Of a stretch of 64,000 nucleotides of DNA, positions 1,952 to 63,261 are shown piece by piece. The notes below the pieces were generated by a model that worked only from the letters and a program-made list of their open reading frames with translations, was not told the origin of the DNA and ran no database searches. A program made the translations under genes and the position numbers. This stretch comes from Candidatus Moraniibacteriota bacterium (GTDB lineage: Bacteria > Patescibacteriota > Minisyncoccia > Moranbacterales > UBA1568). The stretch is from the NCBI GenBank assembly GCA_016699425.1, contig CP064975.1, positions 789,698 to 853,697 on the forward strand, given 5' to 3'. Each line of letters begins with the position of its first letter. Position 1 is the first letter of the stretch.

Positions 1952-2644
1952 ATGCCTGAACCAACCTGGCCAAAATCTGAAAAACCAGAGGAAGAACCGA
2001 GGGAGAAGCTCTCTGAAACCTTGCTTGGATATGACAATCCAAAAATGGCAGAAATCTTAGCCGAGACCGAGGAGGTCTTCAGTCACAATATAAGTGCTTC
2101 TAATGGAATGACGCATCTTTACGGCGATCTTGCCTACCCCCTTATGCCGCCAGAATTTGTGAGATTGCTCGATACCATAAAAGGAGAGGTACAGGGTGGA
2201 ATATTCGTAGATGCCGGATGCGGGAGTTCACCTGATGTACGAGCCGCCGGAAGACTCGGGATCAATAGAGTGGTAGGCATAGATCTTTTGTCACGGCCGG
2301 CCGATAGTCCTGACCCAAAAATTCAGCCCTATACTGAAGATGAGTTCTGGCAAGGGAAGACGATCCTTAAGATTGGAGATGAGATTACCAGAGGATTGGC
2401 TCGTATGAAATCGAGCATGGTTAATATAGTGCATATGCGAGCCCTGGATATTTTTTCAGGGGATGAAGAGCTTTGCCTCGATGAAATACACAGGGTATTA
2501 AAGGATGGTGGATATTTTATCCTCGACAGTAGCGGGAACTCTATATTCCGTAAGTTCGACCTGAATAAATTCGAGGAAGTTATCAATTATGGCGATGAAA
2601 TGAGAATACTCAAGAAAAAGACAATGGAAGATTTGGTTAAATAA
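1952..2644 (+). CDS. class I SAM-dependent methyltransferase (putative)
   Basis: motif I-like IFVDAGCGSS and post-I VLKDGGYFIL; start codon uncertain. Confidence 0.55.
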   Translation: MPEPTWPKSEKPEEEPREKLSETLLGYDNPKMAEILAETEEVFSHNISASNGMTHLYGDLAYPLMPPEFVRLLDTIKGEVQGGIFVDAGCGSSPDVRAAGRLGINRVVGIDLLSRPADSPDPKIQPYTEDEFWQGKTILKIGDEITRGLARMKSSMVNIVHMRALDIFSGDEELCLDEIHRVLKDGGYFILDSSGNSIFRKFDLNKFEEVINYGDEMRILKKKTMEDLVK

Positions 2645-4540: not shown

Positions 4541-7500
4541 ATGAACCAAATCGATTTACATAAAAAAATTGACGAATTAGTAAAAAAATCACCCCTTCTG
4601 GAAATGAAGGAGGAAGTTTCTGTATTCATGGAAAATGAGGATGCGAAAAGCTATTTTTATTCTACTGCAGATGAAAAATGGCTTCCTTGGCTTTGGAAAA
4701 ATTCATTTTTGGAATCAATAAAGGAAAAAGCTCAAGACTTAGATCGCTACAGTTACCGTACCCCAGAGCTGAACTACTTGGCCCGTATGGCTGAAAAGGA
4801 TCCAAAAACGGTAACTGATATTTTATTGGATACCCCGATTTCTTCTAGTAATTTCAATCCGGAAGTAGTTGATAGATTCTTTTGGATAGCTAGTGAGTTA
4901 CCAGCGGAAGAGCTGACAAGAGTAATTCCAAAAATGCGCGATGAGAAATGGATCTTCCTCATGAACAATTTTAATAGTCACGTTGGCTTCAAATTTGAAA
5001 GCATGTTTAAGACACTAAGCAAGGCAGGCGACGATAAGCATGCCCTTATTCTTAGTGATATACTCTTTGAAGTTCGGAAAAAAGATGCCCCAGAAGAAGA
5101 CAAGGACTTGTGGACCGAGAACCCATTTTACTTTAAAGACCTGGAATATTCTGGGGTATTCGATTTCCTTGAAGAAGTAAATGAAAAATATCTTAGTGAG
5201 TCGCTATCCTTAGTATCGAGTACGATGGGAAAGGTGATTCTGTTTAATGCAGATAAGCGTGAGCCTCGAAGCGCATTTTCTGTTGGTGATGGCCTGGCTT
5301 TTTACGAAATAGACTTTTTCTCGCTGGAAACAGGTCAGAAAAAACATACATCTTATCGTGATGATGTACGAGACCTCGTAGCGACCATGAAAACATTGGC
5401 AATACGCGCCTTTAAAGAGAGCTGTCCTGATAAGGAAAAAACGCAAGCTATTTTTGATGCTTACATAGCTACACTACCAGATAGTCAGGCTATGTGGCGC
5501 TTTCGCCTATTCGTTTATAGCCTCTGTCCAGATATTTTTAGTAAAGATATCAAGAAGGCCCTACTCCGTCTTTCAGAGGTCGAAAATCCGCACGATATTA
5601 CTATGGGAGCAGAATATCAACAACTCCTAAGACGGAGTTTAGATTTGTTTTCTGATCCAGAAAAGCAGAAGTTTAAAGAGGTTATTCTAGGAACTTTTTC
5701 AGACTTAGGTAATGAAAAACTTTCCAAGGGGGATGTATTTGGTATATTTTCTATCATTCAAAATTGGCTGACTGAAGAGGAGAAGGAGAAGGCTGAAAAA
5801 TATATTGGCCAAACACTGAAATCAGATTTCCAGCCAGAGCCCATGATTGGAAAAATGCGAGGTGGTTACGTTCAAGAGAAATCAGTGGTGTCTTCTGAAG
5901 AGTTGGCAGCTATGAGTGTGGTTGATATTTCTAAGAAACTGCAGAAAGATTGGATACCAAAAAATTTAACACGCGAAGAATATACTGAGAGCTCTATTAT
6001 TGAATATAGTGCAGAAGGCTTAGGAAAGGCGATCCAGGATGACATGACTAAGAGATTCCAAGATTACATCCAGAACGCCCCTCTGTTCTTTGAACGGGAA
6101 TTATTGGATGCGCACTATACTTACATCTTTGTACGAGGTGTCTATGAGGTTATTAAAAATACGAAAGGAAGTTTGGATATTGAGTGGGAAGGGCTATTCG
6201 GTCTAATTTCGTCAGTCATTACTTCATTTGAAAAGATTCCTGTAGAAGATGGAAAGAGAAAAAGAGATGGGGGGCACGTTTGGCTGGCTGGCTGGGATGC
6301 GGTGCATAACGCCATGGCAGAGGTAATGGAAGTGCTCCTTAAACAACGTGAGGATAAGACGGATGTAATCGAATTCAAAAAGTACAGAGATAAAATCCTA
6401 GTAATAATTAGATACCTTTTGGCGCATCCAAATCCTGATTTGGAAAGCGAGGTGTGCACGCCTCGATCAAATCAATCTTCAACTGGGAAGGGCCAATACG
6501 ATTGTTCCGATCCTTTCACTCACGCAATTAACTCTGTTCGTGGAAAAGCTTTTGAAGCATTAATAAGCTTTGTCTATAAGGACGGAGAACAATTTCCGAA
6601 AGAAGCTCCTGTAAAAGTTTCTTCTGATGTCGTAGCTATATACGAAGAACTTCTTGGTCGGGAAAATACCCGGGCAATTATGTTTTTGTTTGGGCATTAC
6701 TTGCCCTCTATCTACTTCCGTGACAAAAAATGGACTAGGACTTTATTCGATAAGTTATTCGGATTCGATACGCCTAAGCGAGACCTTGCTCTTGCGGCAT
6801 GGGAAGGCTACTTAACGAATAATCTTTACAACGAGATCTTCCAAGAATTGGAACCTTATTACTCTCGTGCTATTGAATTAAAACGAGAAGATTATACTCC
6901 ACGAGAGTATTTCAAGGATCTTGATGAAGTATTAGCAACGCATGTCGCGCTAGCTTTTATGCATTTTCCCCAGTTCACTTATGAATCAGCGCTTTTTAAA
7001 AAGTTCTGGCAAGAAAAGAATCTTAAAAGACAGACTGAATTTATCTCATTTATCGGTCGTTATTCTATATCTCGAGACCAGGCTAAGGAATGGTTAAAGA
7101 AAAGTAAAATAGATTCTAAGAAGTTGGAAAGTTTTTGGGATTGGATTTTAGAGGCACCAGTAGATCCAAAGGTGTTTGAATCATTTGGATTTTGGATGGA
7201 TGCCGAATGGAATGTTTTTGATCCTGCTTGGCAAGCTGAGCGCACACGAAAGACGCTAGAAAAAACAGGTGGTGCAATAGAGTGGAATCATAATCTTCAA
7301 GAATCGCTCCCTATCTTCGCAAAGGTATCCCCTCAAGACACTCTAACAATACTGAAATTGCATCTAGAATATGTTGCTAAGAAAGCTCCGCAACAGGGTT
7401 GGTTTCATCTTGATGACAAAGTTCAAGAAGTATTTCAGTTCCTCTACGAAAATCCTGAGACTAAAAAAGGAACTTACAACCTCATAGATATTTTATTGCC

Positions 7501-7549
7501 GCTTAGTAATGGAATGTTCTGGAAACTTAAAGATATCGTGAAGGAGTAA
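4541..7549 (+). CDS. large hypothetical protein (1002 aa), no recognisable catalytic motifs
   Basis: 3-kb uninterrupted ORF, AT-rich codon usage, followed by strong intrinsic terminator; no Walker/nuclease motifs found by eye. Confidence 0.7.
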   Translation: MNQIDLHKKIDELVKKSPLLEMKEEVSVFMENEDAKSYFYSTADEKWLPWLWKNSFLESIKEKAQDLDRYSYRTPELNYLARMAEKDPKTVTDILLDTPISSSNFNPEVVDRFFWIASELPAEELTRVIPKMRDEKWIFLMNNFNSHVGFKFESMFKTLSKAGDDKHALILSDILFEVRKKDAPEEDKDLWTENPFYFKDLEYSGVFDFLEEVNEKYLSESLSLVSSTMGKVILFNADKREPRSAFSVGDGLAFYEIDFFSLETGQKKHTSYRDDVRDLVATMKTLAIRAFKESCPDKEKTQAIFDAYIATLPDSQAMWRFRLFVYSLCPDIFSKDIKKALLRLSEVENPHDITMGAEYQQLLRRSLDLFSDPEKQKFKEVILGTFSDLGNEKLSKGDVFGIFSIIQNWLTEEEKEKAEKYIGQTLKSDFQPEPMIGKMRGGYVQEKSVVSSEELAAMSVVDISKKLQKDWIPKNLTREEYTESSIIEYSAEGLGKAIQDDMTKRFQDYIQNAPLFFERELLDAHYTYIFVRGVYEVIKNTKGSLDIEWEGLFGLISSVITSFEKIPVEDGKRKRDGGHVWLAGWDAVHNAMAEVMEVLLKQREDKTDVIEFKKYRDKILVIIRYLLAHPNPDLESEVCTPRSNQSSTGKGQYDCSDPFTHAINSVRGKAFEALISFVYKDGEQFPKEAPVKVSSDVVAIYEELLGRENTRAIMFLFGHYLPSIYFRDKKWTRTLFDKLFGFDTPKRDLALAAWEGYLTNNLYNEIFQELEPYYSRAIELKREDYTPREYFKDLDEVLATHVALAFMHFPQFTYESALFKKFWQEKNLKRQTEFISFIGRYSISRDQAKEWLKKSKIDSKKLESFWDWILEAPVDPKVFESFGFWMDAEWNVFDPAWQAERTRKTLEKTGGAIEWNHNLQESLPIFAKVSPQDTLTILKLHLEYVAKKAPQQGWFHLDDKVQEVFQFLYENPETKKGTYNLIDILLPLSNGMFWKLKDIVKE

Positions 7550-7561
7550 TTTTGGAATAGT

Positions 7562-7587
7562 AAAAACCGCCTGTGAGGGCGGTTTTT
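7562..7587. terminator. bidirectional rho-independent terminator
   Basis: AAAAACCGCC-TGTGAG-GGCGGTTTTT hairpin between convergent ORFs. Confidence 0.6.
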
Positions 7588-7597
7588 ACTAAGTTAC

Positions 7598-7933
7598 TTA
7601 TTGGATATTCACGAGTGTCTTACAGCCCGTATCCATAGTGCCCGTTACTTTCGCTTCTTGTTCTAGGAACTCACAGGAAGCTTTCTTGTCGAAGTTCTGC
7701 CAGTTAATCTTTCCATGGGTTGGCTTATCGATGAAGTAGGTAAGCACAACATCGTTTTTCTTGTTTCCATAACGATCAGTTGTTTCGGCATAGTACCAGA
7801 CAATGACATCGTAGGCCTGGATACTCGGAACATCGTACACCGTTTGGAAGATGGAGGTGGAAAGTTCTCCTGTATCCCTGAGAAGCGAGTTTTTACTGTA
7901 GAAGCTTTTGAGGTCAACTTTAACCGTCACCAT
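7598..7933 (-). CDS. hypothetical protein (111 aa)
   Basis: ORF convergent with 1002-aa gene, shares terminator. Confidence 0.4.
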   Translation of the reverse strand: MVTVKVDLKSFYSKNSLLRDTGELSTSIFQTVYDVPSIQAYDVIVWYYAETTDRYGNKKNDVVLTYFIDKPTHGKINWQNFDKKASCEFLEQEAKVTGTMDTGCKTLVNIQ

Positions 7934-8247
7934 TTTGGTATCTTTGGGACGAGAAAGCCAGCTATACCAAGCTTGGGTTTGAGAAGCCGGTTCTAGAGAA
8001 GGATGTTATCCTCGGATTCGGCCTCCAAGATGCCAAATCAGGCCGAGGAGAGTATGAGAGCCATCATGAACTCCAGAAACTTCTCAAAGATGCTCTAAGC
8101 CCTACAAATTGGCGTCTCATGAGCGATGGAGTCACTTATCGCCTTGGATTCCTCCAAGGGCGCTTAAGGGGCGTAGAAGGTGAGGAAAAGCTCAAAGACC
8201 TCCTAGAATCCGAGCAAAAGAAAAGAGACAAGAAAGTAATTAAATAG
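7924..8247 (+). pseudogene. start-less ORF remnant (about 107 codons, no in-frame ATG/GTG/TTG before codon 66)
   Basis: open frame from stop at 7921 to TAG 8245-8247 translating ...VILGFGLQDAKSGRGEYESHHELQKLLKDALSPTNWRL...; only in-frame start gives 42 aa. Confidence 0.3.
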
Positions 8248-8260
8248 CATTAATACCTCT

Positions 8261-8848
8261 ATGCACCGAAAACCATTTCTCCAGCTTCTCAAAGAATACG
8301 AGTTAACAGCTTCTCCTGACGAGAAAGAAGCTGTCGCAGAGCTTATTCAATATGTTTCAGAAAATCCAAACTGCTTCGGACGAGAAGCGAAAGATGGTGC
8401 CAAACATATTGCTGCTTCGGTCTTGCTCATCACGAGAGATTTCAAGAAAGCACTCTTTCTCTGGCATACAAAGATAGGGAGGTGGACACAGCCAGGTGGC
8501 CATGCCGATGGCAATCCCGACTTGCAAGGCGTTGCGCTCAAAGAGCTTGAGGAAGAAACAGGAATTACAGGCGCTCAGCTGGTGAGGCCCGCTCCCTTGG
8601 ACATCTACCGCTTTGATTATCCGTCTGAAGTCTTCGGTTATCGGAAAAGTATTTACAATCTTTGTTTTGCTGCTTTCCTGCCAGAAGGACAGGAGCCAAA
8701 GATAATGGAGCCTGAGAAATGTAAGGAAATGCACTTGGCTACTCCCGAAGAAGCCTTGGTCATGATTCAATCCGTGCATCATGAAGGGACAGAGCGACTC
8801 ATCCGAAAATGGCAGGCTTTGGCAAAGAAAAAAGAAGCAAGGGCGTAG
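8261..8848 (+). CDS. NUDIX hydrolase
   Basis: Nudix box GGHADGNPDLQGVALKELEEETGI. Confidence 0.8.
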   Translation: MHRKPFLQLLKEYELTASPDEKEAVAELIQYVSENPNCFGREAKDGAKHIAASVLLITRDFKKALFLWHTKIGRWTQPGGHADGNPDLQGVALKELEEETGITGAQLVRPAPLDIYRFDYPSEVFGYRKSIYNLCFAAFLPEGQEPKIMEPEKCKEMHLATPEEALVMIQSVHHEGTERLIRKWQALAKKKEARA

Positions 8849-41287: not shown

Positions 41288-42478
41288 TTACTTGATGATT
41301 TTTGTCGCGACACCGGCACCGACGGTACGACCACCTTCACGGATAGCAAAACGCATACCCTCTTCCATGGCGACCGGAGCGATGAGCACGATCTTGAGTT
41401 TCACCGTGTCACCTGGCATGACCATTTCCGTCCCCTCCGGGAGGATGACTTCGCCGGTCACATCCGTCGTCCGAATATAGAACTGCGGCTTGTAGCCTTT
41501 GAAGAACGGGGTGTGACGGCCGCCTTCTTCCTTGTTCAGGATATAGACTTCGCCCTCAAATTCAGTGTGCGGAGTGATTGATCCAGGCTTGGCCAACACC
41601 TGGCCGCGCTCGACGTCTTCCTTTTTGATACCCCGGATGAGGAGACCGGCGTTGTCACCTGCCTGGCCACGGTCGAGTTGCTTGTTGAACATCTCGATAC
41701 CGGTCACGACCGTCTTGGCTGTGTCACGGATACCGACGATTTCGACTTCTTCGTTGATATTGACGACCCCCCGCTCGATTCGGCCAGTGACGACGGTTCC
41801 ACGGCCTTCGATGGAGAAGATGTCTTCGATCGGCATGAGGAACGCCATTTCTGTGTCACGGACTGGTTCTGGGATACGCTCGTCAAGTGCCGCGACGAGG
41901 TCGAGGATCGGCTTGGCATCGGCGTCATCGATTGACTTGGACTCAAGTGCCTTCAGACCACTCCCACGAATGACCGCGGCATTGTCGCCATCGAAATCGT
42001 ACTTGGAAAGAAGTTCGCGGACTTCGGCTTCGACGAGGTCGATAAGCTCGGCATCGTCCACCATATCCACCTTATTGAGGAACACAACGATGTTCTTCAC
42101 ACCGACCTGGCTCGCCAAGAGGATATGCTCACGCGTCTGCGGCATCGGACCGTCTGTTGCAGACACAACGAGAATCGCACCGTCCATCTGGGCGGCACCA
42201 GTGATCATGTTCTTGATATAGTCCGCGTGGCCAGGACAGTCGACATGCGCGTAGTGGCGTTTGTCGGACTCGTACTCACAGTGAGACGTCGAGATAGTGA
42301 TACCGCGCTCCTTTTCCTCCGGCGCCTTGTCGATCTCGTCGACACCTTTTTCCTTGGCAAAGCCCTTCATGGAGAGCACGTGAAGGATGGCGGCCGTCGT
42401 GGTCGTCTTACCGTGGTCGACGTGACCGATCGTGCCGACGTTTACGTGCGGCTTAGTTCGCTGAAATTGCTCTGCCAT
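41288..42478 (-). CDS. tuf: elongation factor Tu
   Basis: [26 protein letters not shown]; ATG at 42478 (track ORF starts at upstream GTG). Confidence 0.95.
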
Positions 42479-42798
42479 ACTGTTGACTGACACCCGAAGC
42501 CGTCTTTGACGACTTTCTTGTGTACATCATTAAGTAAATGATTGATTACGAAAAATTTTTCATTTTCCTGGTCCGTCCTCACCAACAGACAAAAACGGCT
42601 CAGGAAAGCGTCAATCAGGATAATAGCAAGGAGAAAAAATCCTGTCAACCCCAGCACCCTTTCTACAAAAAAATAGTCCCTTCTTCGTGTTTATGCCGTG
42701 AAGTGGCTATGCCTTTTGTCTTCAAATTACTCGAGATTCTCCTCTGAAATGGTGCGGGGTCAAGTCCAGCCCTGTTTCACGCCGTAAACCAGTCTTCC

Positions 42799-43749: not shown

Positions 43750-44954
43750 GTTACCGTTACCTTTTCAGTTGATAGTAGGACGCTTTTTTTCAAAAAGTTT
43801 TACTGCTTCTACGCCTAGTTTTACTAATGTCTCAGGCCAGCGAGCCTGTTTTTTGATACTCAAAGAGAGTGAAGGGTAACCGTTCAAATATTTAAATTTA
43901 GCTTCACAATCTGTAAAAGGCTTGGTTCTCCTCCGTATCATCCACGCATTCAACCAACACTGAGCCGAAGCAAAACTCTGAAAACCCTTGATCGTCTTCA
44001 GCCTCCCATTGAGATGGGAATTGTAGAGTTCAATGAGATTGGTGTTGTTGGGACAGCCTGGCAGCAGCAAGTAATTGAAGAGTTCCTCCTGCCGGTACGC
44101 TATCTCACTTACGATGTTTTTGAGCAGACGTTTCTCTCTCTTGATGCTCGCGGCAAAAGATCGAATGGCGTTCGTCACATCCTCTCGTTCTCCAAACACG
44201 CTCTCCTTGAGAGCGTAAAAGAAGGGCCGGTATCGCTCTTCACTCCGCACCCGTAAAGCCACCCGGATATTCTCCAGGTAGTGGTTGTGGCAGAGCTGCA
44301 GCCGAGCCGACGGAAAAACCTTCAGGAGAGCCTTTTTCAGGCCAGAGCGGTCATCGGCGACCACGATCTGAAGATCATAGCCAAGTTGCTTCACTTGATG
44401 GAAGAAACGTGAGAAGGACACCTCATCTTCCGCTGTATACAAAGCCCCGAAGGGAATATCGTGGGTCAAGTAATCAATGCCGTAGAGAAAAGGAATCTTT
44501 CTCGCAAAGCCTTTGACCGCCACATACTTCCCATCCATGACAAGGATGCCCGAGAAGCGTCTCGGGTCACAGAGGGTTTGCGTCAGAGCGTCATTGGAAG
44601 GAAGTTGTGCTAATTCTCTTGTAACTCTCACGAAGGCTTGTTTTCCCGAGAGACCATATTCATCTCCTAATTTACGAAACGGTACCCCATCAATATGCTC
44701 GATCCACAGCAGTCTCGGATCATGCCCGAAGTAACGAGAAAAAGAATGTTCACAAGCACGACACAGGTAGTGATGGCTGTAGCCTTGGGAGCCATTCTTC
44801 ACCGTCTCACGACTGCTGCAGCGGGGACAGTGACGTGACCATTTTTTTTGACATGCTGAATGAAATTTAAGGCTTAAAGTCAACTTTACAGCCGGTTTGA
44901 GGCTCTAGTCTAACAAGAACAACACTTTCCATCAACTGAAAAGGTAACGGTATC
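43750..44954 (-). mobile_element. IS element (IS1/IS1595-like) with 24-bp terminal inverted repeats and 9-bp target-site duplication
   Basis: IRL 43750-43773 G[T]TACCGTTACCTTTTCAGTTGAT, IRR 44931-44954 reverse complement (1 mismatch); TSD GGGACAGTA at 43741-43749 and 44955-44963. Confidence 0.8.
43765..44883 (-). CDS. DDE transposase with N-terminal zinc ribbon
   Basis: CPRCSSRETVKNGSQGYSHHYLCRACEHSFS resembles IS1 InsA / IS1595 zinc finger; fills the IS. Confidence 0.7.
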   Translation of the reverse strand: MTLSLKFHSACQKKWSRHCPRCSSRETVKNGSQGYSHHYLCRACEHSFSRYFGHDPRLLWIEHIDGVPFRKLGDEYGLSGKQAFVRVTRELAQLPSNDALTQTLCDPRRFSGILVMDGKYVAVKGFARKIPFLYGIDYLTHDIPFGALYTAEDEVSFSRFFHQVKQLGYDLQIVVADDRSGLKKALLKVFPSARLQLCHNHYLENIRVALRVRSEERYRPFFYALKESVFGEREDVTNAIRSFAASIKREKRLLKNIVSEIAYRQEELFNYLLLPGCPNNTNLIELYNSHLNGRLKTIKGFQSFASAQCWLNAWMIRRRTKPFTDCEAKFKYLNGYPSLSLSIKKQARWPETLVKLGVEAVKLFEKKRPTIN

Positions 44955-45476: not shown

Positions 45477-47585
45477 TTATTTCTCTTCTTTGGCCGCTCC
45501 ACCCGTCTTGGCACCCATGATTTCTTCCGCCACGTTCCGTGGGACTTCCGCATAGTGAGCGAATTCCATGGAGTAGCTCGCCCGGCCCTGACTCATCGAG
45601 CGCATTTGAGTCGCATAGCCGAACATGCTGGCGAGCGGAACTTCGGCCGTTACTTCCTTCACACGCGCATTGCCCTCGCCCCGGTCGGTCATTTCCTTGA
45701 TGATGCCACGCTTCGCATTCAGGTCGCCGACGATATCGCCCATGAAGCTCTCTGGCATAATAACGGCGACTTTCATGATCGGCTCGAGGATGATCGGCTT
45801 GGCGCGCCGCATTGCCTCCTTGAAGGCAAGCGAACCGGCGATCTTGAACGCCGCTTCGGATGAGTCGACGTCGTGGAATGATCCGTCATAGACCGTCGCC
45901 TTCACATCGACGACCGGATAACCCGCCAAGACACCCGTCTGGGTCGCCTCTTCGATGCCCTTGTTGATCGGCTTGATGAATTCCTGTGGGATGACACCGC
46001 CTTTGGTCTCGTCGAAGAATTCATAGCCCTTACCCTGCTCATTCGGCTCGAGCCGGATCCAACAATGGCCGTACTGCCCGCGACCACCCGACTGACGGAC
46101 ATACTTGCCTTCGGCTTGAGCCATCTCACGAATTGTTTCACGATAAGCGACCTGCGGTCGACCGACATTCACTTCGACTTTGAATTCGCGACGCATGCGA
46201 TCGACGATGATATCGAGGTGCAGCTCGCCCATACCCGAGAGGATAGTCTGGCCCGAGTCTTCATCCGTGTGAACGCGGAAGGTCGGATCTTCTTCGGAAA
46301 GTTTCTTTAAGGCAACGCCCATCTTTTCCTGATCAGCCTTCGTCTTCGGTTCGACTGCGATATCGATGACCGGCTCCGGAAAGACAATGTTTTCGAGAAT
46401 CACCGGCGCTTCTGGATCACACAGCGTATCACCGGTCATGGTCGCCTTCATCCCAACGAGGGCACCGATATCACCAGCTGCGAGATCTTCGATGTCCTCA
46501 CGATGATTAGCATGCATCCGGAGGATACGACCGATTCGTTCCTTTTCATTTTTTGTGGAATTGAGGACATACGATCCAGCCTTGACCGTACCGGAATAGA
46601 CACGGAAAAAGGTGAGCTGGCCGACGAATGGGTCGGTCGCGACCTTGAACGCGAGCGCGGAAAATTTTTCGTTGTCGTCAGTCTTGCGCTCCACTTCCTG
46701 CTCGGTCTTGGCATCGATGCCCGTAACTGGTGGAATATCGACGGGTGACGGGAGATAATCGACGACCGCATCGAGCACGAGCTGAACGCCTTTGTTGCGG
46801 AGCGCCGTCCCCGTCATGACCGGATGGAGTCGGACCTCGATGGTTGCCTTACGCAGAGCCGCCTTCAGTTCCGGCACAGAGATTTCAACCCCCGAGAGGA
46901 ATTTCTCGGTCAGCGCATCATCGCTCTCGGCGATCTTTTCCACCATTTTCTCGCGCCACTCTTTGGCCTTCTCGGCGTATTCAGCCGGGACCTCGCTTTC
47001 AATTACCTTCTCACCCATCTCCCCTTCAAAGGTATAGGCCTTCATGGTCATGAGGTCGATGAGACCGTAAAAGTCCCCACGGAGGCCGAGCGGATACTGG
47101 ATCGCGACCGCGTTCGGCGTAAGACGATTCCAAATAGACGTCAATGCATCTTCGAAGACAGCCCCTTCCTTGTCGATCTTGTTGATGAAACACATGCGCG
47201 GCACTTTGTATTTTTCCGCCTGGCGCCAGACCGTCTCGGACTGCGGCTCCACGCCTTCCTTGCCATCGAACACAACCACACCACCGTCGAGGACACGGAG
47301 AGAGCGTTCCACTTCTACCGTAAAGTCCACATGTCCGGGTGTGTCGATGATATTGATATGGTGGTCCTTCCAGTAGCACGTCGTCGCGGCGCTGGTGATG
47401 GTGATACCACGCTCCCGCTCCTGCTCCATCCAGTCCATGGTCGCCTCACCTTCGTGCACCTCGCCGATCTTGTGCGTGATGCCAGTGTAGAAGAGGATAC
47501 GCTCAGTCGTCGTCGTCTTACCGGCGTCGATGTGCGCGATGATACCAATATTGCGATACTTCTCGATGGCGATTTTACGGGGCAT
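45477..47585 (-). CDS. fusA: elongation factor G
   Basis: [23 protein letters not shown], full five-domain length. Confidence 0.95.
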
Positions 47586-54930: not shown

Positions 54931-55839
54931 TTACTTCCAATATACCTGAGACGTCGTCACGATTTCCTTCCACGGCCCGTCCGGCACGGCGTCCGCGACA
55001 ACAAAGCGCCAATCGACGATATCGATATCCTTCAGTCCCAGACACTGACTCGCAGCCGGGGAAAGGTCGAGACCGGCGTGCTTATTGGTCTTGCTCTCGG
55101 GAGTGGCTGTGCCAAAGACATAGGCGCTGTCGTTTTCCTTGAAGGGTCCCACGTCTTGCCACTGAGCGTAGCAGGTTTTCTCACCCTTGGTCACTTCGAT
55201 CCACCGGTTCTTGAGCATGGATTCATCATCCTTCCACGTCCGGTCCTTGGCCCAGGGGATGATCGAAGCAGCGTCTTTCTTACGCTTTCCCTTGGAATCG
55301 AAGTCATTGTACGGCAAAGCAAAATAGAATGGATTCTCCTGTGGCGTAAACTTGGCCGGGAAGTTGCCATTCCGTTTGTCCGGATCGTCTACACCCCCAA
55401 AATGTTTGACCCATTTCTCATCCCACGCACTCGGGAGATTGGAGATATCCTTATTGTCGTCCCCCGCCTCCTCGCCCACCCAGAAAAGTGTCGTCGTCAC
55501 ATCCTGATGGAGAGGGTACGGCGGGTCCTCTGCAACTGTGTCGTCTCCAATTCCTTCAGGTTTCGGCAGAGCCGTCTCGGCCGGTGTGACCAATGAGGGT
55601 GCCATCTCGACAGGACTCATGGGGGTGTCTATGTTCTCTTCCGTCAGCGTCTCTTCCGGTGTCGCGCTTCCAACGTTCGCTCCAACAGAAAGCACCGCTT
55701 CTCCTCCTTGAGGGGCTGTCTCACTCTCCGTATCTTCCGAACTCGAAATCTTTTTCCCGACAGCGACAAACGCGAGGGACGTCCCAATGATGATGGAACT
55801 CAACAACATGAGTACTCCCACGCGATGTAAACTTCTCAT
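54931..55839 (-). CDS. secreted protein with RlpA-like double-psi beta-barrel domain (putative)
   Basis: signal/TM then ...WIEVTKGEKTCYAQWQDVGPF...AGLDLSPAASQCLGL resembles DPBB/RlpA. Confidence 0.45.
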   Translation of the reverse strand: MRSLHRVGVLMLLSSIIIGTSLAFVAVGKKISSSEDTESETAPQGGEAVLSVGANVGSATPEETLTEENIDTPMSPVEMAPSLVTPAETALPKPEGIGDDTVAEDPPYPLHQDVTTTLFWVGEEAGDDNKDISNLPSAWDEKWVKHFGGVDDPDKRNGNFPAKFTPQENPFYFALPYNDFDSKGKRKKDAASIIPWAKDRTWKDDESMLKNRWIEVTKGEKTCYAQWQDVGPFKENDSAYVFGTATPESKTNKHAGLDLSPAASQCLGLKDIDIVDWRFVVADAVPDGPWKEIVTTSQVYWK

Positions 55840-56063
55840 GCAGTATTTTTAGTGTTTAGGGGAGACTGTTCTCTCCAGAACCTCTCAACATTCAAACAAA
55901 CACGCGGCCCATGAAACGGGCGGAAGGAACTCTATTGTACCAGTATAATCGGCGTCCGACAAAGTCCGCATATCCTACGCTGAGAGAGATATCCACTCCC
56001 CGCCACCGAGATAGAAAGTGCAGATCTGAGCGACAAAAAATCCCCTTGGCGGGGATAATTGGC

Positions 56064-56347
56064 ATCAGAGCTCTTGAGAGGAGAGGAAGGCGTGGTACTG
56101 CATCGTCTTCCTCTCGAATAGGTCGGCTAGACAGGAGCAGGACTCCCATACTAACCTCCCTCCAGTGCTAGCTGTACGGTGTTCGACCTCGCCCACCCCA
56201 TCCGTTTAGAGGAGGAAGTGAGGAAACCAAACCTCTCCATACCATTTTCCGAACGAAGACCCATTCGGTGCTGTCCAACTCACGCCAAGCGACGTGAGGG
56301 CACTGGAAGAACTGACTTAGAGAGCATGCTCTCTCAAGAATGCTGAT
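56064..56347 (+). other. noncoding unit bracketed by about 20-bp inverted repeats (ATCAGAGCTCTTGAGAGG ... GCTCTCTCAAGAATGCTGAT)
   Basis: same bracket sequences as units at 62666-62862 and 62880-63136; lies in 680-bp ORF-free divergent region. Confidence 0.35.
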
Positions 56348-56517
56348 GATCGAGAAAATATTCTCGAACTCCAGGGTAACAGACCATCGCCGATCGGTCA
56401 ATCCCGCAGGATTCTGACACCACCTAAAAAGCTGATACAATATCCTTGACTGAGAATACTGCAAGCCTGCGGAATAACCGGGTGTGTGATTTCTTCACTT
56501 ACATAATCAGCATCGAT

Positions 56518-57465
56518 ATGAATAAACCACTTGTCGTAGCCGGTGTTGTTCTTACCCTCTTCTCGCTCACCGCGCTCGCTCTCGCCTGGTGGTCAGCCTA
56601 TCGGGTGACACAAATACAGAAAACAATGAACACGGCTGACAAAAATCCAACACTCGATTCACACACGCCGTCAGGCGATGACTCACCCACACCTGTTCTT
56701 GATCAATCGCAAGATGCTCTGGTAATGACCAAGCCAATAACAGATGAAAAATATACTCTCGTAACGCTCGGTGACCTCTCGGTCAATCGGCAAGCCTACA
56801 ATGGCCACCCGATTGAAATCATCGACTATATGGACACGGGACCCCTTCCCTCACCCAATGGGACGAAAAAGTATACTGAGTACATCAAAATCCTCTCGCC
56901 AGATTATGTCCGAGGGCTTGACCTGGTCTATCCTCCATTCACGACCGATGATCCGGCTCGCTATGCCCGTGTGGCGCCGCTCTACCGCGGCGAGCAACGA
57001 GTGAGCATCAAGGGGAAATTTGTCATCGACCTCATGAAGACACCGACGCGTCCGATAGAAAACGACGTCATCGTGGTTGATCACTTCGACATTCTCCCCT
57101 TCCCAGAGCCGGAAAAGGGAGTGATCACGAAAGAAATTTTCTCCCAGATGATCGAGGATGGCACAATCGCATCGCTGAATCGGAAACGCATCACCTATGA
57201 AGGCGAGTACGGCTCCGGTTTCGAAGTGTCGCTCCTCGATAAACTGATTTGGGCGAACTTCATTGAAACCGAAATGGGCAATGCCGTCGATGAACTCGAA
57301 CGATTCATGCGTACTCACTCCGAAATGAAGAAAGAAGATGGGCAAATGAAGTCCAAAGTCCGAGTCACCGGTGTGCTCTATGCCACCCCCGGACAGCGTT
57401 ATGGCCACCTCGGACGCACCCTATATCAGATGATGGTCGACACGGTTGTTTTCCTCGAACAGTAA
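56518..57465 (+). CDS. membrane-anchored hypothetical protein
   Basis: start at MNKPLVVAGVVLTLF (56518). Confidence 0.55.
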   Translation: MNKPLVVAGVVLTLFSLTALALAWWSAYRVTQIQKTMNTADKNPTLDSHTPSGDDSPTPVLDQSQDALVMTKPITDEKYTLVTLGDLSVNRQAYNGHPIEIIDYMDTGPLPSPNGTKKYTEYIKILSPDYVRGLDLVYPPFTTDDPARYARVAPLYRGEQRVSIKGKFVIDLMKTPTRPIENDVIVVDHFDILPFPEPEKGVITKEIFSQMIEDGTIASLNRKRITYEGEYGSGFEVSLLDKLIWANFIETEMGNAVDELERFMRTHSEMKKEDGQMKSKVRVTGVLYATPGQRYGHLGRTLYQMMVDTVVFLEQ

Positions 57466-57684
57466 CGTTCACACCAGACACCCGCCCATCTCCTTCGAAA
57501 TGACGCCCTTCCTGGTACCATACTGCGGCACAAGAATTGCCTCGTGACCCAAAAAGAAAAGCTCCCGATGTCGGTATTCTGACAACTGGGAGCTGAACAC
57601 CTGGTAAGTGACCACGAGGACCGCCCGAGAAGATCCGAATGTACCGACAAAAACGGAAACTCAGCCTGAATCAGGAGAGCTCTC

Positions 57685-58413
57685 TCATGTGGACGCATTC
57701 AGCATGCGCTGCGCCGCCATCCTGACCGCTGTCGGTAGCATCAGCCATTCATACGGCAGCACGATTTCCCGCAGCTTGAGCGCAGCCGCCCTGATGTCAT
57801 ATGTCCCATCGAGGACACCCTGCAACAGCGTAGACGGAATCTCCACTGCTCCCATCAGAAGTGGTGGACCATCGCCCGGTCTCTCCGTGACCTCATGGAC
57901 GGTCGGATAGGTGAAAAAACGGTCGCACCCGAGGCTTTTCTTGCCGCGCCGGATGTGATCGAGCTCCGCCTCGAGAACGTGCTCGTGCACCCGTAGGCCA
58001 TGCATCCCCTGACCCCCGTGAGCATCGATGTCTGCCGGGTGGATGTTGTACATTGGCAGCCCGCATATTGGATAGGCAATGGAGGAGTCAAATGGCACGA
58101 TCACATTGCAGCCAACAAGAAACACGAGGCGACATTGACGGGCCTGAGCTACCCTCGAAAGCTCATTGAGAAATCCGCGTTTTTCGTACGTATACTGAAA
58201 CGACGTACTCCCTACTTCGATGACTACGCTGGGATAGTCGAGATCATTCGCCTTTTCAATGCAACCCGCACCCGGTTTGGTACTCACGAGCACGATCTGC
58301 CCGACTTCCGGGATCTGACCGGCGTGATGAGCCTTCATGATGGAAAACATACCGGTACCATTGCCGGAGGCGATGACCATCAGGTTCACTTCGCCACTTG
58401 TACGCTTGGGCAT
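57685..58413 (-). CDS. formyltransferase family protein (PurN-like)
   Basis: VIASGNGTG N-terminal and NIHP...TVHEVTERPGDGP blocks. Confidence 0.55.
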   Translation of the reverse strand: MPKRTSGEVNLMVIASGNGTGMFSIMKAHHAGQIPEVGQIVLVSTKPGAGCIEKANDLDYPSVVIEVGSTSFQYTYEKRGFLNELSRVAQARQCRLVFLVGCNVIVPFDSSIAYPICGLPMYNIHPADIDAHGGQGMHGLRVHEHVLEAELDHIRRGKKSLGCDRFFTYPTVHEVTERPGDGPPLLMGAVEIPSTLLQGVLDGTYDIRAAALKLREIVLPYEWLMLPTAVRMAAQRMLNAST

Positions 58414-58577
58414 GGGAGCCCTCCTCTCTTGTAATCACAACACTCTATAAACCGGCCTCCCATGAGGAAGGCCACCAAAGAACTAGTCACCGAGTATCGC
58501 AAATTCGGACGTCCCAGTCAAATGGAAATCACCAAGGATCACATCCGATGCGGCTTTCTATTTTTTCCGAGCCGTAT

Positions 58578-60513: not shown

Positions 60514-60515
60514 CC

Positions 60516-60561
60516 AAAAAAAACCGCCCCGGTTCCCTCCAAGGCGGCTTTCAATTTTTCC
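60516..60561. repeat. 46-nt terminator-like direct repeat A (AAAAAAAACCGCCCCGGTTCCCTCCAAGGCGGCTTTCAATTTTTCC)
   Basis: 39/46 identical to 63187-63232; hairpin CCGCC..GGCGG flanked by A- and T-tracts. Confidence 0.5.
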
Positions 60562-60567
60562 TTTTCA

Positions 60568-61440
60568 TTAGCTTTTCTGAATCAAGCTAACTAGTGCTTT
60601 TACGGAGGACAGCTCTGGCTCCTCAATTTTTTTTGCGTCAATAATCCGCGGAGGTTTAGTATCGTCACTAAAAGTAACATAATAGTAATTGCCCCTATCT
60701 ATAATTCCATGACCAATTTCTTGAGAAGTTGCTGCTTTATATTTCCCTTCAATTGTTTTTTCTTTAATTACCTCAAAACGAACTTCATAATCTGAATCTC
60801 TCCTTTTCCCAAGCGGTGCATGGGAACCAATCCTGATAAGATGCCGCTGACCAACCTCCGTGAAAGGAATGAACTGCGATCCCCTCCCAAGGAGAAAGTT
60901 CCCCTGCTTGTAAGGATTAAGATTAAAGTTCACTAATTTTGAAACGCTTTTGGCCGCCTTTTTTGCCGACCTATCGACAATCCTTGTCTCCTCAGTGCTT
61001 TTTCCCTCCACCCAATGAAGATTAAATCCAAATCGAATTTTCTTTTTTTCTCTTAAGTAATCCTTCCATAATCCCTGATGCTTAACATCATAACCATCCC
61101 GAGTCTTCCATTTATCTTTGCCGAATGGTTTAGCCCACCTATATACGCTACTATTTGCGCTATCAACTACATACCTAGAATCACTAAGAACAGTAATCGA
61201 AGTAATTCCAAGTTGAGAGATTTCCTTGGTATTCCTATTTATCCACTTCAGCGCATTAACCAATGCCTGTAATTCCATCGCCCCACTTGTTCCGCCAGAA
61301 TAAGGAAACTTAATCTCCCTATTTGGTAGATTAAGAAACTTGGGATACACGACAAGCATCGCACATCCAACCATTTCACCTGGATTGGTGATTGCTGATC
61401 CGTCTATATAAATCACCAGTTCATCTTCGCTATCCAACAT
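60568..61440 (-). CDS. RNase H (type 1) domain protein with 140-aa uncharacterised C-terminal domain
   Basis: DEDD residues in IYIDGS / MELQAL / LSDSRY / IVDRSA; start at ATG 61440; AT-rich. Confidence 0.7.
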   Translation of the reverse strand: MLDSEDELVIYIDGSAITNPGEMVGCAMLVVYPKFLNLPNREIKFPYSGGTSGAMELQALVNALKWINRNTKEISQLGITSITVLSDSRYVVDSANSSVYRWAKPFGKDKWKTRDGYDVKHQGLWKDYLREKKKIRFGFNLHWVEGKSTEETRIVDRSAKKAAKSVSKLVNFNLNPYKQGNFLLGRGSQFIPFTEVGQRHLIRIGSHAPLGKRRDSDYEVRFEVIKEKTIEGKYKAATSQEIGHGIIDRGNYYYVTFSDDTKPPRIIDAKKIEEPELSSVKALVSLIQKS

Positions 61441-61463
61441 GTCGAGCCAATATAGTTTGGGAT

Positions 61464-61545
61464 GCACCAAGACGGGAATCGAACCCGTACGATCCAAAGA
61501 TCATCTTCTTGTAGAATTTCAAAAAAATTAGAAACTCTAGTAGGA
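61464..61545 (-). other. tRNA-like T-arm/acceptor fragment (GTACGGGTTCGATTCCCGTCTTGGTGC) plus long AT-rich hairpin; not a complete cloverleaf by eye
   Basis: perfect T-arm ACGGG-TTCGATT-CCCGT on minus strand; no matching 5' acceptor strand found. Confidence 0.3.
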
Positions 61546-61630
61546 AGATGTGTCTACCATTCCACCACTCGAGCAAAGCTTTTACCCATAATACTATCTC
61601 CAGCTAAATCAATATTAAGCAGAAAAAGAG

Positions 61631-62206
61631 TCAGGACAGTATCTTTTCGTTACGCTTTTGAAGTAAATATCCCGCTATACCTAAAATAATTGGCATGGCT
61701 AGTCCCATAATTACAATTGTATCCACTCGTTCATTTATTCGAACATACGCCCCTTCTAAATCCTCAACACTTTCATTCAAAACATCCTGTTTATCCTTCA
61801 ATGTTCTTGAGGTTATTGCCTTATCAGTATCATAAAGTATTGTCTCTTCGATTGAGTTCTGCCTTGCCTCCAAACCAGTTACTCGCTGATTTACCAAGGC
61901 AAGTGATGTGCCCTGGTTATTTTTCAGCACCTCCCGCAATGATAACAGCTCTTTCTCAAGAGCCAGGTTTTTCTTATTTAGATTTTCAATTTTTTCCAAG
62001 ATCTCATCCTTATTCCTTATCAAAGAGAATGGGAAACTATCAATTCTTGTCTGATAGAGTAGGTAGCCAATAGAAAGGACGGCGTAGACTATAGTGAGAC
62101 TGAGAACGAGACTCTGTTTTCTCTTCCTTCTTTCTTCTAAAGACTTCTGAAGAGCCAAGTACTCAGAGAAAGACTCAGATAGCTTTTTTTGTGAGGAATA
62201 GGCCAT
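61631..62206 (-). CDS. hypothetical coiled-coil membrane protein
   Basis: 2 TM helices flanking coiled-coil; AT-rich. Confidence 0.5.
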   Translation of the reverse strand: MAYSSQKKLSESFSEYLALQKSLEERRKRKQSLVLSLTIVYAVLSIGYLLYQTRIDSFPFSLIRNKDEILEKIENLNKKNLALEKELLSLREVLKNNQGTSLALVNQRVTGLEARQNSIEETILYDTDKAITSRTLKDKQDVLNESVEDLEGAYVRINERVDTIVIMGLAMPIILGIAGYLLQKRNEKILS

Positions 62207-62209
62207 ACC

Positions 62210-62416
62210 TTATTTCTTTGGGAAAGCTTCATCAATCGCTTCAGCAACAATATCGAGCTCCTTTTCCAGTTCAGTTGAAATCTCCTCCTCAGTAACAATT
62301 TTTTTTTCAATAAGGATCTTCTCTATTGCATTCAATCTCGCATTTCTCGCAAAATCAAAGGCCGATCTTGGACCAACCTTTGAATTTATTCTATCTAAAA
62401 ATTCTTGCAGCTTCAT
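62210..62416 (-). CDS. small hypothetical protein (68 aa)
   Basis: 3-nt gap to downstream ORF. Confidence 0.4.
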   Translation of the reverse strand: MKLQEFLDRINSKVGPRSAFDFARNARLNAIEKILIEKKIVTEEEISTELEKELDIVAEAIDEAFPKK

Positions 62417-62665
62417 ATCTTTTCTTTTGTGATAAAAACCCGGCCGAAACCGTGAGTCCTAAGTAACTTCCTTGTAGAGGGAAGATAGTCTAAAAACCTA
62501 GTTCGGTCAAGCATACAAAAAACCAGTCTTGCGACTGGTTTCGTGCCTTACACGGTATCAGAAGGAAATTCCTTGATCCTTGGATATTCGTGCGGAGAGT
62601 GCTGATCATATAAAGTGGGACCTCTTCACGGAGTCGCCCACCAAAGGGCTGTCCCACCGACAATA

Positions 62666-63136
62666 ATCAATACTCTTGAGAGAGAAGAAGTCTGGGTGTG
62701 ACCATGACTTCTCCGAGGAAGAAAAAGTCCGACGAGAGCAAGCGGCGCAGAGGGTAACGCGTCGCAGGTGGAGGAGAACGGAGAAGCTCTTCGTCGGCCC
62801 TGACGACACTGGATGCCAGGGGAAATTTTCAGGAGCGCATTCGCTCTCTCAAGAGAACTGATATTCGATTGTAAACTGCATCAATACTCTTGAGAGAGAA
62901 GGAATCGAAGCGGTTGCGACGATTCCCTCTCGAGTGGGTTGCCGATCACAGATTGCCTGCGACCGGGCCCCCGGCGCCTTGCCCGCAGATACCGGGAAGT
63001 ATGCTGCAAGCCTCAGTCTGCCCGAGAGTGGTAGGGTCCCCCTGGGTTGGGGTGGTGAGAGGGACCGCTCGGAGCGACGACGACCTTGCGCCGGAAAGAA
63101 CAAAAGAGAACCCGAGGCTCTCTCAAGAATATTGAT
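62666..63136 (+). ncRNA. candidate structured RNA, possibly RNase P RNA (rnpB), built from two tandem inverted-repeat-bracketed units
   Basis: 5' TCAATACTC/TTGAGAGAG pairs with 3' CTCTCTCAA/GAATATTGA (P1/P2-like); P3-like hairpin GAAGTC..GACTTC; GAGGAAGAAAAAGTCCGAC (cf. GAGGAAAGUCCGGGC); GGGTAACGC; GGTGAGAGGGAC; AGAGAACCCGAGG before 3' stem (cf. ACAGAACCCGGCUUA); no credible ORFs. Confidence 0.35.
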
Positions 63137-63186
63137 CTGTGAAATAGCGTAGGGAGAGTATCGCAAATCCGGCTATCTAAGTCAAC

Positions 63187-63232
63187 AAAAAAAACCACCC
63201 AGGATCACTCCGAGGCGGCTTTCAATTTTTCC
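63187..63232. repeat. 46-nt terminator-like direct repeat B
   Basis: AAAAAAAACCACCCAGGATCACTCCGAGGCGGCTTTCAATTTTTCC, last 20 nt identical to repeat A. Confidence 0.5.
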
Positions 63233-63261
63233 GTATCCCGCGAACACGAGACGATCAAGCG

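Follow-up and report, generated by a model that had tools for sequence, protein, structure and literature searches.

A candidate family of structured noncoding RNA genes with a common terminal helix in Candidatus Moraniibacteriota

The window, by which we mean the whole stretch of 64,000 nucleotides analysed here, contains three noncoding units, A, B and C, which are well supported as a candidate new structured RNA family in an uncultured lineage. Together with their relatives in other genomes, these units probably form an undescribed family of structured noncoding RNA genes of Candidatus Moraniibacteriota, in which a scaffold of two helices, P1 and P2, carries paralogue-specific domains; this assessment includes the mechanism that we propose for them below. 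The units show the general features of structured noncoding RNA genes, namely a promoter and terminator, strand-specific pairing and compensatory substitutions across species. Bacteria of the candidate phyla radiation (CPR) make up a large share of bacterial diversity and have tiny genomes and unusual ribosomes. To our knowledge almost no noncoding RNAs have been described from them, and our literature search found no described family of such RNAs for Patescibacteria or Moranbacteria. The family would offer a concrete and testable way into the RNA processing or ribosome-linked functions of an uncultured lineage.

Three units in the window and their strand

An earlier note on this DNA had reported an inverted-repeat bracket, ATCAGAGCTCTTGAGAGGAGAGGAAG and GCTCTCTCAAGAATGCTGAT, around noncoding sequence. 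Both arms were located, the second at 56328-56347 as described and the first at 56064; being 26 nt long, the first arm ends at 56089 and not at 56090. The unit that they enclose (unit A) lies in a divergent noncoding gap of 678 bp between ORFs at 54931-55839 (minus strand) and 56518-57465 (plus strand), and the same arms also enclose 62666-62862 (unit B) and 62880-63136 (unit C), in agreement with what had been noted. The interiors of the three units are indeed unrelated, with no detectable similarity among them by alignment or BLAST, and no second copy of any interior was found within the window. The description of the unit A interior as GC-rich holds only mildly, its GC content being 55% and that of the window 52%. 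The 16-nt palindrome AGAGAGCATGCTCTCT is present at 56319-56334; it combines a short conserved hairpin with the distal end of the closing helix. The arms themselves stood as the conserved bracket, and the conserved part proved larger than had been stated, as it includes a hairpin, P2, beside one arm. The features of the three units and their surroundings, all on the minus strand, are as follows.

56064-56347, minus strand: unit A, predicted structured RNA gene of 284 nt
56081-56115, minus strand: P2 hairpin of unit A, GAGAGGAAGACG - loop - CGCCUUCCUCUC, directly abutting the P1 3' strand
56373-56401, minus strand: probable sigma-70-type promoter of unit A, read from the sequence (TTGACC at 56401-56396, a 17-nt spacer, TACCCT at 56378-56373)
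56030-56056, minus strand: predicted intrinsic terminator of unit A, AUCCCCGCCAAGGGGAU then UUUUUUG, beginning 7 nt past the unit
62880-63136, minus strand: unit C, 257 nt, predicted first gene of a two-unit array (covariance model, 79.3 bits)
62666-62862, minus strand: unit B, 197 nt, predicted second gene of the array (covariance model, 59.7 bits)
62542-62665, minus strand: trailer RNA element of about 125 nt, conserved and structured, directly after unit B
63157-63185, minus strand: predicted promoter of the C-B array, from a promoter scan (TTGACT, 17 nt, GATACT; TG precedes the -10)
62516-62541, minus strand: predicted terminator of the C-B-trailer operon, read from the sequence, ACCAGUCGCAAGACUGGU then UUUUUU, within alignment A3 and the trailer fold

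The conserved sequence of these units is concentrated well beyond chance. With at most one mismatch allowed, the window has 6 matches to the motif GCTCTCTCAAGA (0.49 expected), and none of 100 shuffled sequences reached that number; 5 of the 6 matches fall inside units A, B and C. A covariance model of the 3' module (junction, P2 and P1 3' strand) gave exactly three strong matches in the window, all on the minus strand, including one of 58.9 bits at 56064-56128 in unit A; the E-values of this model are rough.

The earlier note had written unit A in plus-strand orientation and had assigned no strand, and several observations place the RNA on the minus strand. Under strict DNA complementarity the A.C and C.A positions of the arms count as mismatches; these account for almost all of the apparent mismatches of the closing helix when it is read on the plus strand, and on the minus strand they are G.U pairs. 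The 19-nt arms, complementary at 15-18 of 19 positions when read in the orientation of the earlier note, are complementary at 16-19 of 19 on the minus strand with G.T counted as a pair. Of the units first collected, all 15 have the more stable fold in reverse complement, and in the full set 23 of 24 units fold better on the minus strand, with a summed minimum free energy of -2834 versus -2467 kcal/mol. Unit A folds on the minus strand at -121.2 kcal/mol (z = -4.19), a value equalled by none of 200 shuffles; a slightly larger stretch around it folds on the plus strand at -106.4 kcal/mol (z = -3.16).

Signals for transcription lie on the same strand. Every stand-alone unit or array has a promoter-like TTGACn-17-TAnnnT, a leader of about 20-30 nt, the unit or units, and then a hairpin with a U-run, and all 24 units share one orientation relative to promoter, terminator and 16S rRNA gene. 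The unit A promoter was missing from the list of a simple scanner because its -10 hexamer is weak; it recurs in the orthologues as TTGACC-17-TAyyCT at three loci (L061, L055 and L056; related loci are designated by L and a number, and the window units where needed as wA, wB and wC) and as TTGACA-17-TACGCT at a fourth (L021). The site at 56030-56056 is the sole terminator-like site detected in 55800-56600, and the orthologues have different hairpins and U-runs at this position. Minus-strand folding, promoters and terminators together point to minus-strand transcription units; that the units are transcribed, where their RNAs begin and end, and that P1 is cleaved are predictions from the sequence.

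Shared scaffold and covariation

In all types of unit the ends are joined by P1, a terminal helix of 16-19 bp in which the 5' end, AUCARUAUUCUUGAGAGAG, pairs with the 3' end, CUCUCUCAAGAGUAUUGAU. The P1 5' strand is followed by a short UCUC element and a UUUCC stretch, and a variable, paralogue-specific, well-folded domain of 100-300 nt, enclosed by a type-specific GC-rich long-range stem (P3), branches off on this 5' side. The 3' side carries a junction, (G)ACCUAUUC, which in most types is preceded by a hairpin, P4, and is followed by P2, a 12-bp hairpin that adjoins the P1 3' strand. No spacer separates P2 from P1, so that the two can stack end to end as one quasi-continuous helix of about 28 bp.

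Pairing in both helices is maintained by compensatory change in our comparison set, which consists of about 15 closely related genomes aligned with MAFFT, a method that is not structure-aware. Pairs make up 95% of the P1 cells and no more than 52% once the partner strand is slid, and double changes occur at 6 pairs in 15 cells, a level reached by none of 500 shuffles. The P1 core is swapped as GGGAG/CUCCC and GAGGGAG/CUUCCUC, and a C10-G pair is changed to G-C, in units that were not retrieved by pattern; the U8.G wobble of P1 is present in 18 of 20 units. Across 20 units P2 has 79.6% of its cells paired, compared with no more than 62% after sliding, with 24 double-change cells, a number as high in none of 500 shuffles. 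The base of P2 is conserved (GAGARGRA...UYCUYUC) and its distal part varies in a compensatory manner. The near-invariant 12-bp core of P1 is unusual for an RNA helix and would suit sequence-specific DNA recognition equally; this invariance is partly a matter of ascertainment, since an exact bracket pattern served to retrieve most of the loci, and units found through adjacency or synteny do show variation in the bracket. Small ORFs or a Shine-Dalgarno mimic in P2 were considered and rejected, as the P2 sequence is too variable and the tiny ORFs are not conserved.

Unit A follows the common plan. On the minus strand it begins with the P1 5' strand (56347-56329), followed by the short hairpin formed from the palindrome; here it is the UCUC element that forms the palindrome, and this conserved small hairpin can compete with the top of P1. 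Stem P3 (CUUCCAGUG / CACUGGAGG) then encloses three hairpins and is followed by hairpin P4, the junction GACCUAUUC, P2 and the P1 3' strand (56082-56064). A hammerhead-like CTGATGA...GAAA at the right end of the unit was rejected, being absent from units B and C and from the orthologues and lacking the core, and RNase P-like motifs (GGAAGAAAAAGTCCG and CAGAAGTCCCCCGGCTTGA) were rejected because they occur on the plus strand only and gave no Rfam RNase P match.

Syntenic orthologues of unit A are present in at least four other genomes. These were fetched via the neighbouring protein, and hence independently of the bracket, and the resulting alignment holds six syntenic copies from five genomes whose neighbour proteins range from 99% to about 68% identical to those of the window. 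The predicted structure has 86 pairs; 92.7% of its cells are paired, and sliding lowers this to 54% or less. Double changes affect 11 pairs in 19 cells, a total reached by 1 of 500 shuffles, with 4 of the 11 pairs falling in one interior hairpin. Many of the one-sided changes convert G-C to G-U or A-U to G-U, keeping the pairing on the minus strand only. The bracket is retained in the orthologues, whereas the flanking noncoding DNA and the terminator sequences have diverged, and this retention of structure between diverged flanks is the signature of purifying selection on RNA structure. Apical domains have been replaced even between syntenic orthologues (wA versus L021, and wC versus L041).

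Relatives in other genomes and linkage to 16S rRNA genes

Beyond the window the bracket was found at 17 further loci by pattern scans, and additional loci were fetched via the neighbouring protein. Scanning one genome per species with the exact pattern yielded 13 loci, 10 of them with complete units, and a metagenome scan gave 7 additional loci. All 10 loci with complete units are in assemblies of Candidatus Moranbacteria/Moraniibacteriota or in assemblies labelled 'uncultured Bdellovibrionales'; at the loci bearing the latter label (L011 and L014), the 16S 3' ends and spacers match those of Moranbacteria loci. Adjacency revealed four units within 1.2 kb in L014, and one further unit (L020b) was found with the 3'-module covariance model. 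Exact-pattern scans, synteny, adjacency and the covariance model together yielded 24 distinct units of 180-388 nt, all from Candidatus Moraniibacteriota-type assemblies, an apparent restriction that is partly due to ascertainment because most loci were retrieved by exact pattern. A scan of viral contigs with the 5' arm gave 10 matches, none with the second arm, and these were dismissed as chance; BLAST searches of phage and plasmid collections with both regions of the window gave no match.

The interiors of the units fall into at least 6 sequence clusters plus singletons, and wA, wB and wC belong to three different clusters. Similarity between interiors runs between orthologues of different genomes and not within a genome, and genomes sampled at more than one locus each have a number of distinct paralogues, with three of them in the window and four in L014. 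Units in tandem are spaced by AU-rich linkers of 15-18 nt. Interior types are combined with P2 variants in a mosaic fashion, suggesting that recombination has taken place through the identical arms. No protein gene is common to all loci. Template/variable-repeat pairs of a diversity-generating retroelement were rejected as a source of the different interiors, these being single-copy in the window.

Several units appear, from their sequence context, to be co-transcribed with 16S rRNA. At three loci (L011, L015 and L041) a unit follows the 16S gene on the same strand, 200-280 nt past its 3' end; the units of L014 start about 380 nt past that end, behind their own promoters. L016, L017 and probably L047 were placed in the 16S context by the shared flanking hairpin of that slot, and L013 because its units are preceded by the 16S stalk and trailer. 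The 16S rRNA is followed first by the 3' half of its processing stalk (UUAGGACUAACC), whose pairing partner is the leader; a small hairpin comes next, then the unit, and the trailer of about 125 nt and a terminator complete the series. The unit sits outside the 16S processing stalk, within the 3' external spacer. In L015 the 16S model was matched end to end (1-1533) with no insertion. The trailer is present in one copy at each of the seven 16S-linked loci (7/7) that have downstream sequence. The slot after the 16S gene holds different unit types depending on the genome and is empty in L013 and L014, where the units lie just downstream with their own promoters. A possible UUGAU remnant was seen in an empty 16S slot. 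Pairing of conserved segments with 16S rRNA in the manner of a guide or chaperone was rejected, the duplex energies being no better than those of shuffled sequences.

The C-B array of the window shares elements with these 16S-linked loci. A gap of 17 nt separates unit C from unit B, behind which the trailer is found although there is no 16S gene there, and the hairpin of the C-B-trailer terminator also ends the 16S transcription units in L011, L015 and L041. A five-genome alignment of the trailer (A3) has 7 pairs with double changes and hardly any variation in the 3' half; the fold has z = -2.55. The unit C interior is related to that of L041 only, and the unit B interior groups with L017 by similarity, with L013a and L014y of the same type by inspection. 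The 30-nt sequence of the C-B promoter is repeated at 58492-58521, upstream of a formyltransferase gene (repeat D14).

This array lies in a segment that varies between strains. The window and its close relative L061 (87-90% nucleotide identity) are colinear except at 60530-63186, a stretch of 2.66 kb in whose place L061 has other genes; in the window it contains the trailer-B-C operon together with an RNase H-domain gene and two small ORFs. The segment is bordered by a terminator-like direct repeat of 52 nt. Homologues of the RNase H gene at five other loci (L064-L068) have no units nearby, and its association with the units is therefore incidental.

Alternative explanations and proposed function

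The main rival to an RNA gene family is that the units are IVS-like passengers, that is, functionless or selfish spacer insertions excised by RNase III via the basal helix and spread by recombination through the arms. In candidate phyla radiation bacteria, rRNA genes commonly carry short insertions of the IVS type (PMC11270868), and the units resemble the IVS of 23S rRNA in having a long basal helix, formed from both ends, around a variable interior within rRNA transcription units, in their sporadic occurrence between operons and strains, and in their presumed removal by a double-strand-specific nuclease (RNase III). The location in the 16S 3' external spacer, the variable filling of the 16S slot, the mosaic of P2 variants and interiors with hypervariable apical regions, and the placement of the C-B operon in a 2.66-kb segment missing from a close relative would all fit dispensable elements of this kind. 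We nevertheless regard this explanation as unlikely. Whereas IVS lie inside mature 23S rRNA (helices 25 and 45), the units are outside mature rRNA, in the 16S 3' external spacer or free-standing, and many stand alone with a conserved promoter and terminator of their own. They also keep a conserved junction and P2, which excision alone would not need, as well as covarying interior helices and several paralogue types per genome. These arguments apply to unit A, a stand-alone gene that has remained syntenic despite diverging flanks, with compensatory changes in helices far from the basal stem.

Three readings of the arms as DNA or leader elements fare worse. The earlier note had offered MITE-like elements as one explanation, with the arms as terminal inverted repeats for a transposase encoded elsewhere, and the conserved, near-perfect 19-bp inverted repeats around a noncoding interior of 150-350 bp, the several copies per genome and the presence or absence at the slot beside 16S do recall such non-autonomous transposons. 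This suggestion did not hold up and is now highly improbable: the flanks of 20 units show no target-site duplication or direct repeat at the arms, the interiors are unrelated within a genome and orthologous between genomes, unit A is stable in position, and the strand-asymmetric G.U pairs and compensatory changes reflect RNA pairing, with orientation fixed relative to promoter and terminator. The window's only transposase (IS256 family, 43765-44883) has unrelated inverted repeats of 22 bp, and the phage and plasmid collections held no copies. Equally remote is a role as a cis-regulatory leader (riboswitch or attenuator) of the downstream gene on the same strand, for unit A the ORF at 54931-55839 and then the 144-aa and ApbE genes. 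Unit A and its orthologues are always upstream of the 144-aa/ApbE cluster, on the same strand and with a terminator between, but this reading fails because contexts are heterogeneous, other members lying after 16S rRNA, in tandem or before unrelated genes. Moreover, the terminator has, by inspection, no alternative pairing to P1, a separate promoter-like site (55962-55934) lies between terminator and gene, and the window and L061 have an extra gene between the unit and the 144-aa gene. Conserved inverted repeats of suitable length around 150-350 bp could also mark invertible DNA switches (invertons), in which a recombinase would flip the interior; this is scarcely credible, since the orientation is constant in 24 of 24 units, no invertase or recombinase is adjacent, and G.U asymmetry is unexpected for DNA sites.

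We therefore favour a family of structured RNA genes, and propose that the P1-P2 helix protects the RNA ends and serves all units as a module for processing. RNase III, the obvious candidate, would cut it, or other nucleases would trim back to it, freeing unit-length stable RNAs from polycistronic precursors. P1-P2 would probably also dock one shared protein, and the variable domain would carry a paralogue-specific role. Expression would be from the units' own promoters, in tandem arrays or within the 3' external spacer of an unlinked 16S rRNA gene. The processing role is suggested by the constant length, near-constant sequence and conserved U.G wobble of P1-P2, and by the fact that it bounds every unit in arrays and in the rRNA spacer beside a classical RNase III stalk; conservation of sequence beyond the needs of pairing points to one shared protein partner. 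Searches of the window itself found neither an RNase III signature nor a candidate binding protein. The alternative suggestion of the earlier note, a common processing signal for several small RNAs, thus finds agreement in the promoter and terminator boundaries, the compensatory changes and the 16S linkage, with cleavage at the stem as the part that we infer. At least three to four paralogues per genome sampled at several loci, conserved promoters and terminators, covarying structure and repeated wiring to 16S would make an idle family unlikely in a genome of about 1.2 Mb.

A more ambitious and rather improbable proposal is that the units are subunits of a CPR-specific ribonucleoprotein or RNA-only assembly made in step with 16S rRNA. 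If so, P1-P2 would dock a common protein in the manner of Ro and Y RNA or, as the P1 strands are all interchangeable, the paralogues could alternatively pair in trans, and the interchangeable interiors would each contribute a different activity, be it in ribosome biogenesis, RNA quality control or host-cell interaction.

Comparison with known RNAs gave no assignment for the units. At gathering thresholds Rfam 15 had no matches on the whole window, and on 17 related loci it matched only 16S rRNA and one SAM riboswitch, outside the units; in E-value mode the unit regions returned only noise (at most 22.5 bits, E at least 0.29). ARAGORN found no tRNA-like genes in the window or the 17 loci. Fragmented rRNA or a disguised housekeeping RNA was rejected in the absence of local Rfam matches to LSU, SRP, tmRNA, 6S or RNase P. 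A 6S RNA was further rejected on structure, the folds being multi-branched junctions and not rod-like with a large central bubble, and a CsrB-like protein sponge was rejected because only 16 of 109 GGA motifs (about 82 expected) are in predicted loops.

Likenesses to described systems are partial. The Y RNAs, YrlA and YrlB also form small, sometimes tandem paralogous families with a conserved end helix that has a non-Watson-Crick feature; in Y RNAs this helix is the binding site of Ro60/Rsr, the remainder is variable and there is a link to rRNA metabolism, all of which resembles the units. Unlike Y RNAs, the units have no Rfam Y RNA match and no tRNA-like module, their helix sequence is unrelated and they are 2-3 times longer; no Rsr/TROVE or RtcB gene was among the neighbours examined, which cover part of each genome. 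The small RNA 3'ETS-leuZ and tandem sibling small RNAs derive from rRNA or tRNA precursor spacers or are tandem paralogues with shared modules, and the units are like them in their stable-RNA spacer origin or tandem arrangement with shared modules. Those RNAs, however, are 50-150 nt long and act by base pairing through conserved single-stranded seeds, whereas the units are 180-390 nt, highly structured and conserved in a double helix. MITEs share with the units terminal inverted repeats around a few hundred bp of noncoding DNA and several copies, and differ from them in target-site duplications, which the units lack, and in the units' interiors unrelated within a genome, fixed orientation, syntenic orthologues and G.U pairing. 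Like raiA, HEARO, ROOL, GOLLD and OLE, the units combine a complex conserved structure with no known function and restriction to a lineage; unlike these they have no Rfam 15 match, and they join one invariant scaffold to interchangeable interiors in several paralogues per genome. Such a combination of an invariant helix scaffold with interchangeable folded domains would be an unusual evolutionary mode for an RNA family, and the unit alignments are a ready seed for a new RNA family model.

Trailer element and its copies

A conserved, structured RNA element of about 125 nt follows unit B, the second of the two bracketed RNA units in the C-B array, and has the sequence pattern ...GACUCCGUGAAGAGG...CGCACGAAUAUCCAAGGAUCAAGGAAUUUCCUUCUGAUACCGUGUAAGGCAC. 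In several Moraniibacteriota this trailer lies at the end of the 16S rRNA transcription unit, immediately 5' of the terminator; the copy in the window has no 16S gene at that place. The trailer gave no match to Rfam.

Copies of the trailer element in the window and in related loci from other assemblies
Window 62542-62665, minus strand
L011 6610-6745, minus strand
L015 4470-4607, minus strand
L041 858-1005, plus strand
L014 ~395-560, plus strand
L013 ~2230-2380, minus strand

The 16S leader of L015 (6800-6900, minus strand) opens with the hairpin GAGAGGAAAUGUUCCUCU, which is similar to the purine/pyrimidine P2 stem of the RNA units and is followed by a boxA-like UUUUCUUUAAAAAC.

Four related loci, L011, L013, L014 and L016 (records CAZGXN01, CAYWVL01, CAYNMD01 and CAYLPD01), come from assemblies titled "uncultured Bdellovibrionales bacterium". 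Their 16S spacers, trailers and RNA units match Moraniibacteriota loci, as do the 16S 3' ends of L011 and L014, and judged by sequence these labels are probably wrong.

Variable segment and promoter of the C-B operon

The trailer-B-C operon, an RNase H-domain gene and two small ORFs lie in a 2.66-kb segment flanked by a 52-nt direct repeat (60515-60566 and 63186-63237, 87% identical), itself a bidirectional terminator-like hairpin with an A-run and a T-run. The close relative L061 has DUF924 and a 187-aa gene in place of this segment, and holds additional copies of the 52-nt repeat.

An identical 30-nt promoter sequence (TTGACT-17-GATACT) is found on the minus strand at 58492-58521 and 63156-63185, and is predicted to drive transcription of the C-B RNA array as well as of the formyltransferase gene.

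At 6764-8543, L061 has additional genes for two enzymes of purine biosynthesis, SAICAR synthase and AIR carboxylase; the window has just ~250 bp at this place (57465-57713).

Transposase element and other repeats

43765-44883, minus strand, IS256/Mutator-family transposase gene (element span 43752-44952)

Perfect 22-bp inverted repeats (TACCGTTACCTTTTCAGTTGAT) lie at both ends of this gene, and the element has the EF-Tu gene (41288-42493) on one side and, on the other, a 702-aa ORF (45477-47585) that is probably EF-G. Unexplained repeats elsewhere in the window are a 31-nt inverted repeat (40750-40780/40867-40897, spacing 86 nt), a 30-nt inverted repeat (38037-38066/38103-38132, spacing 36 nt) and three copies of AATCCCTCCCTCTCCGC (1748, 1855 and 3886).
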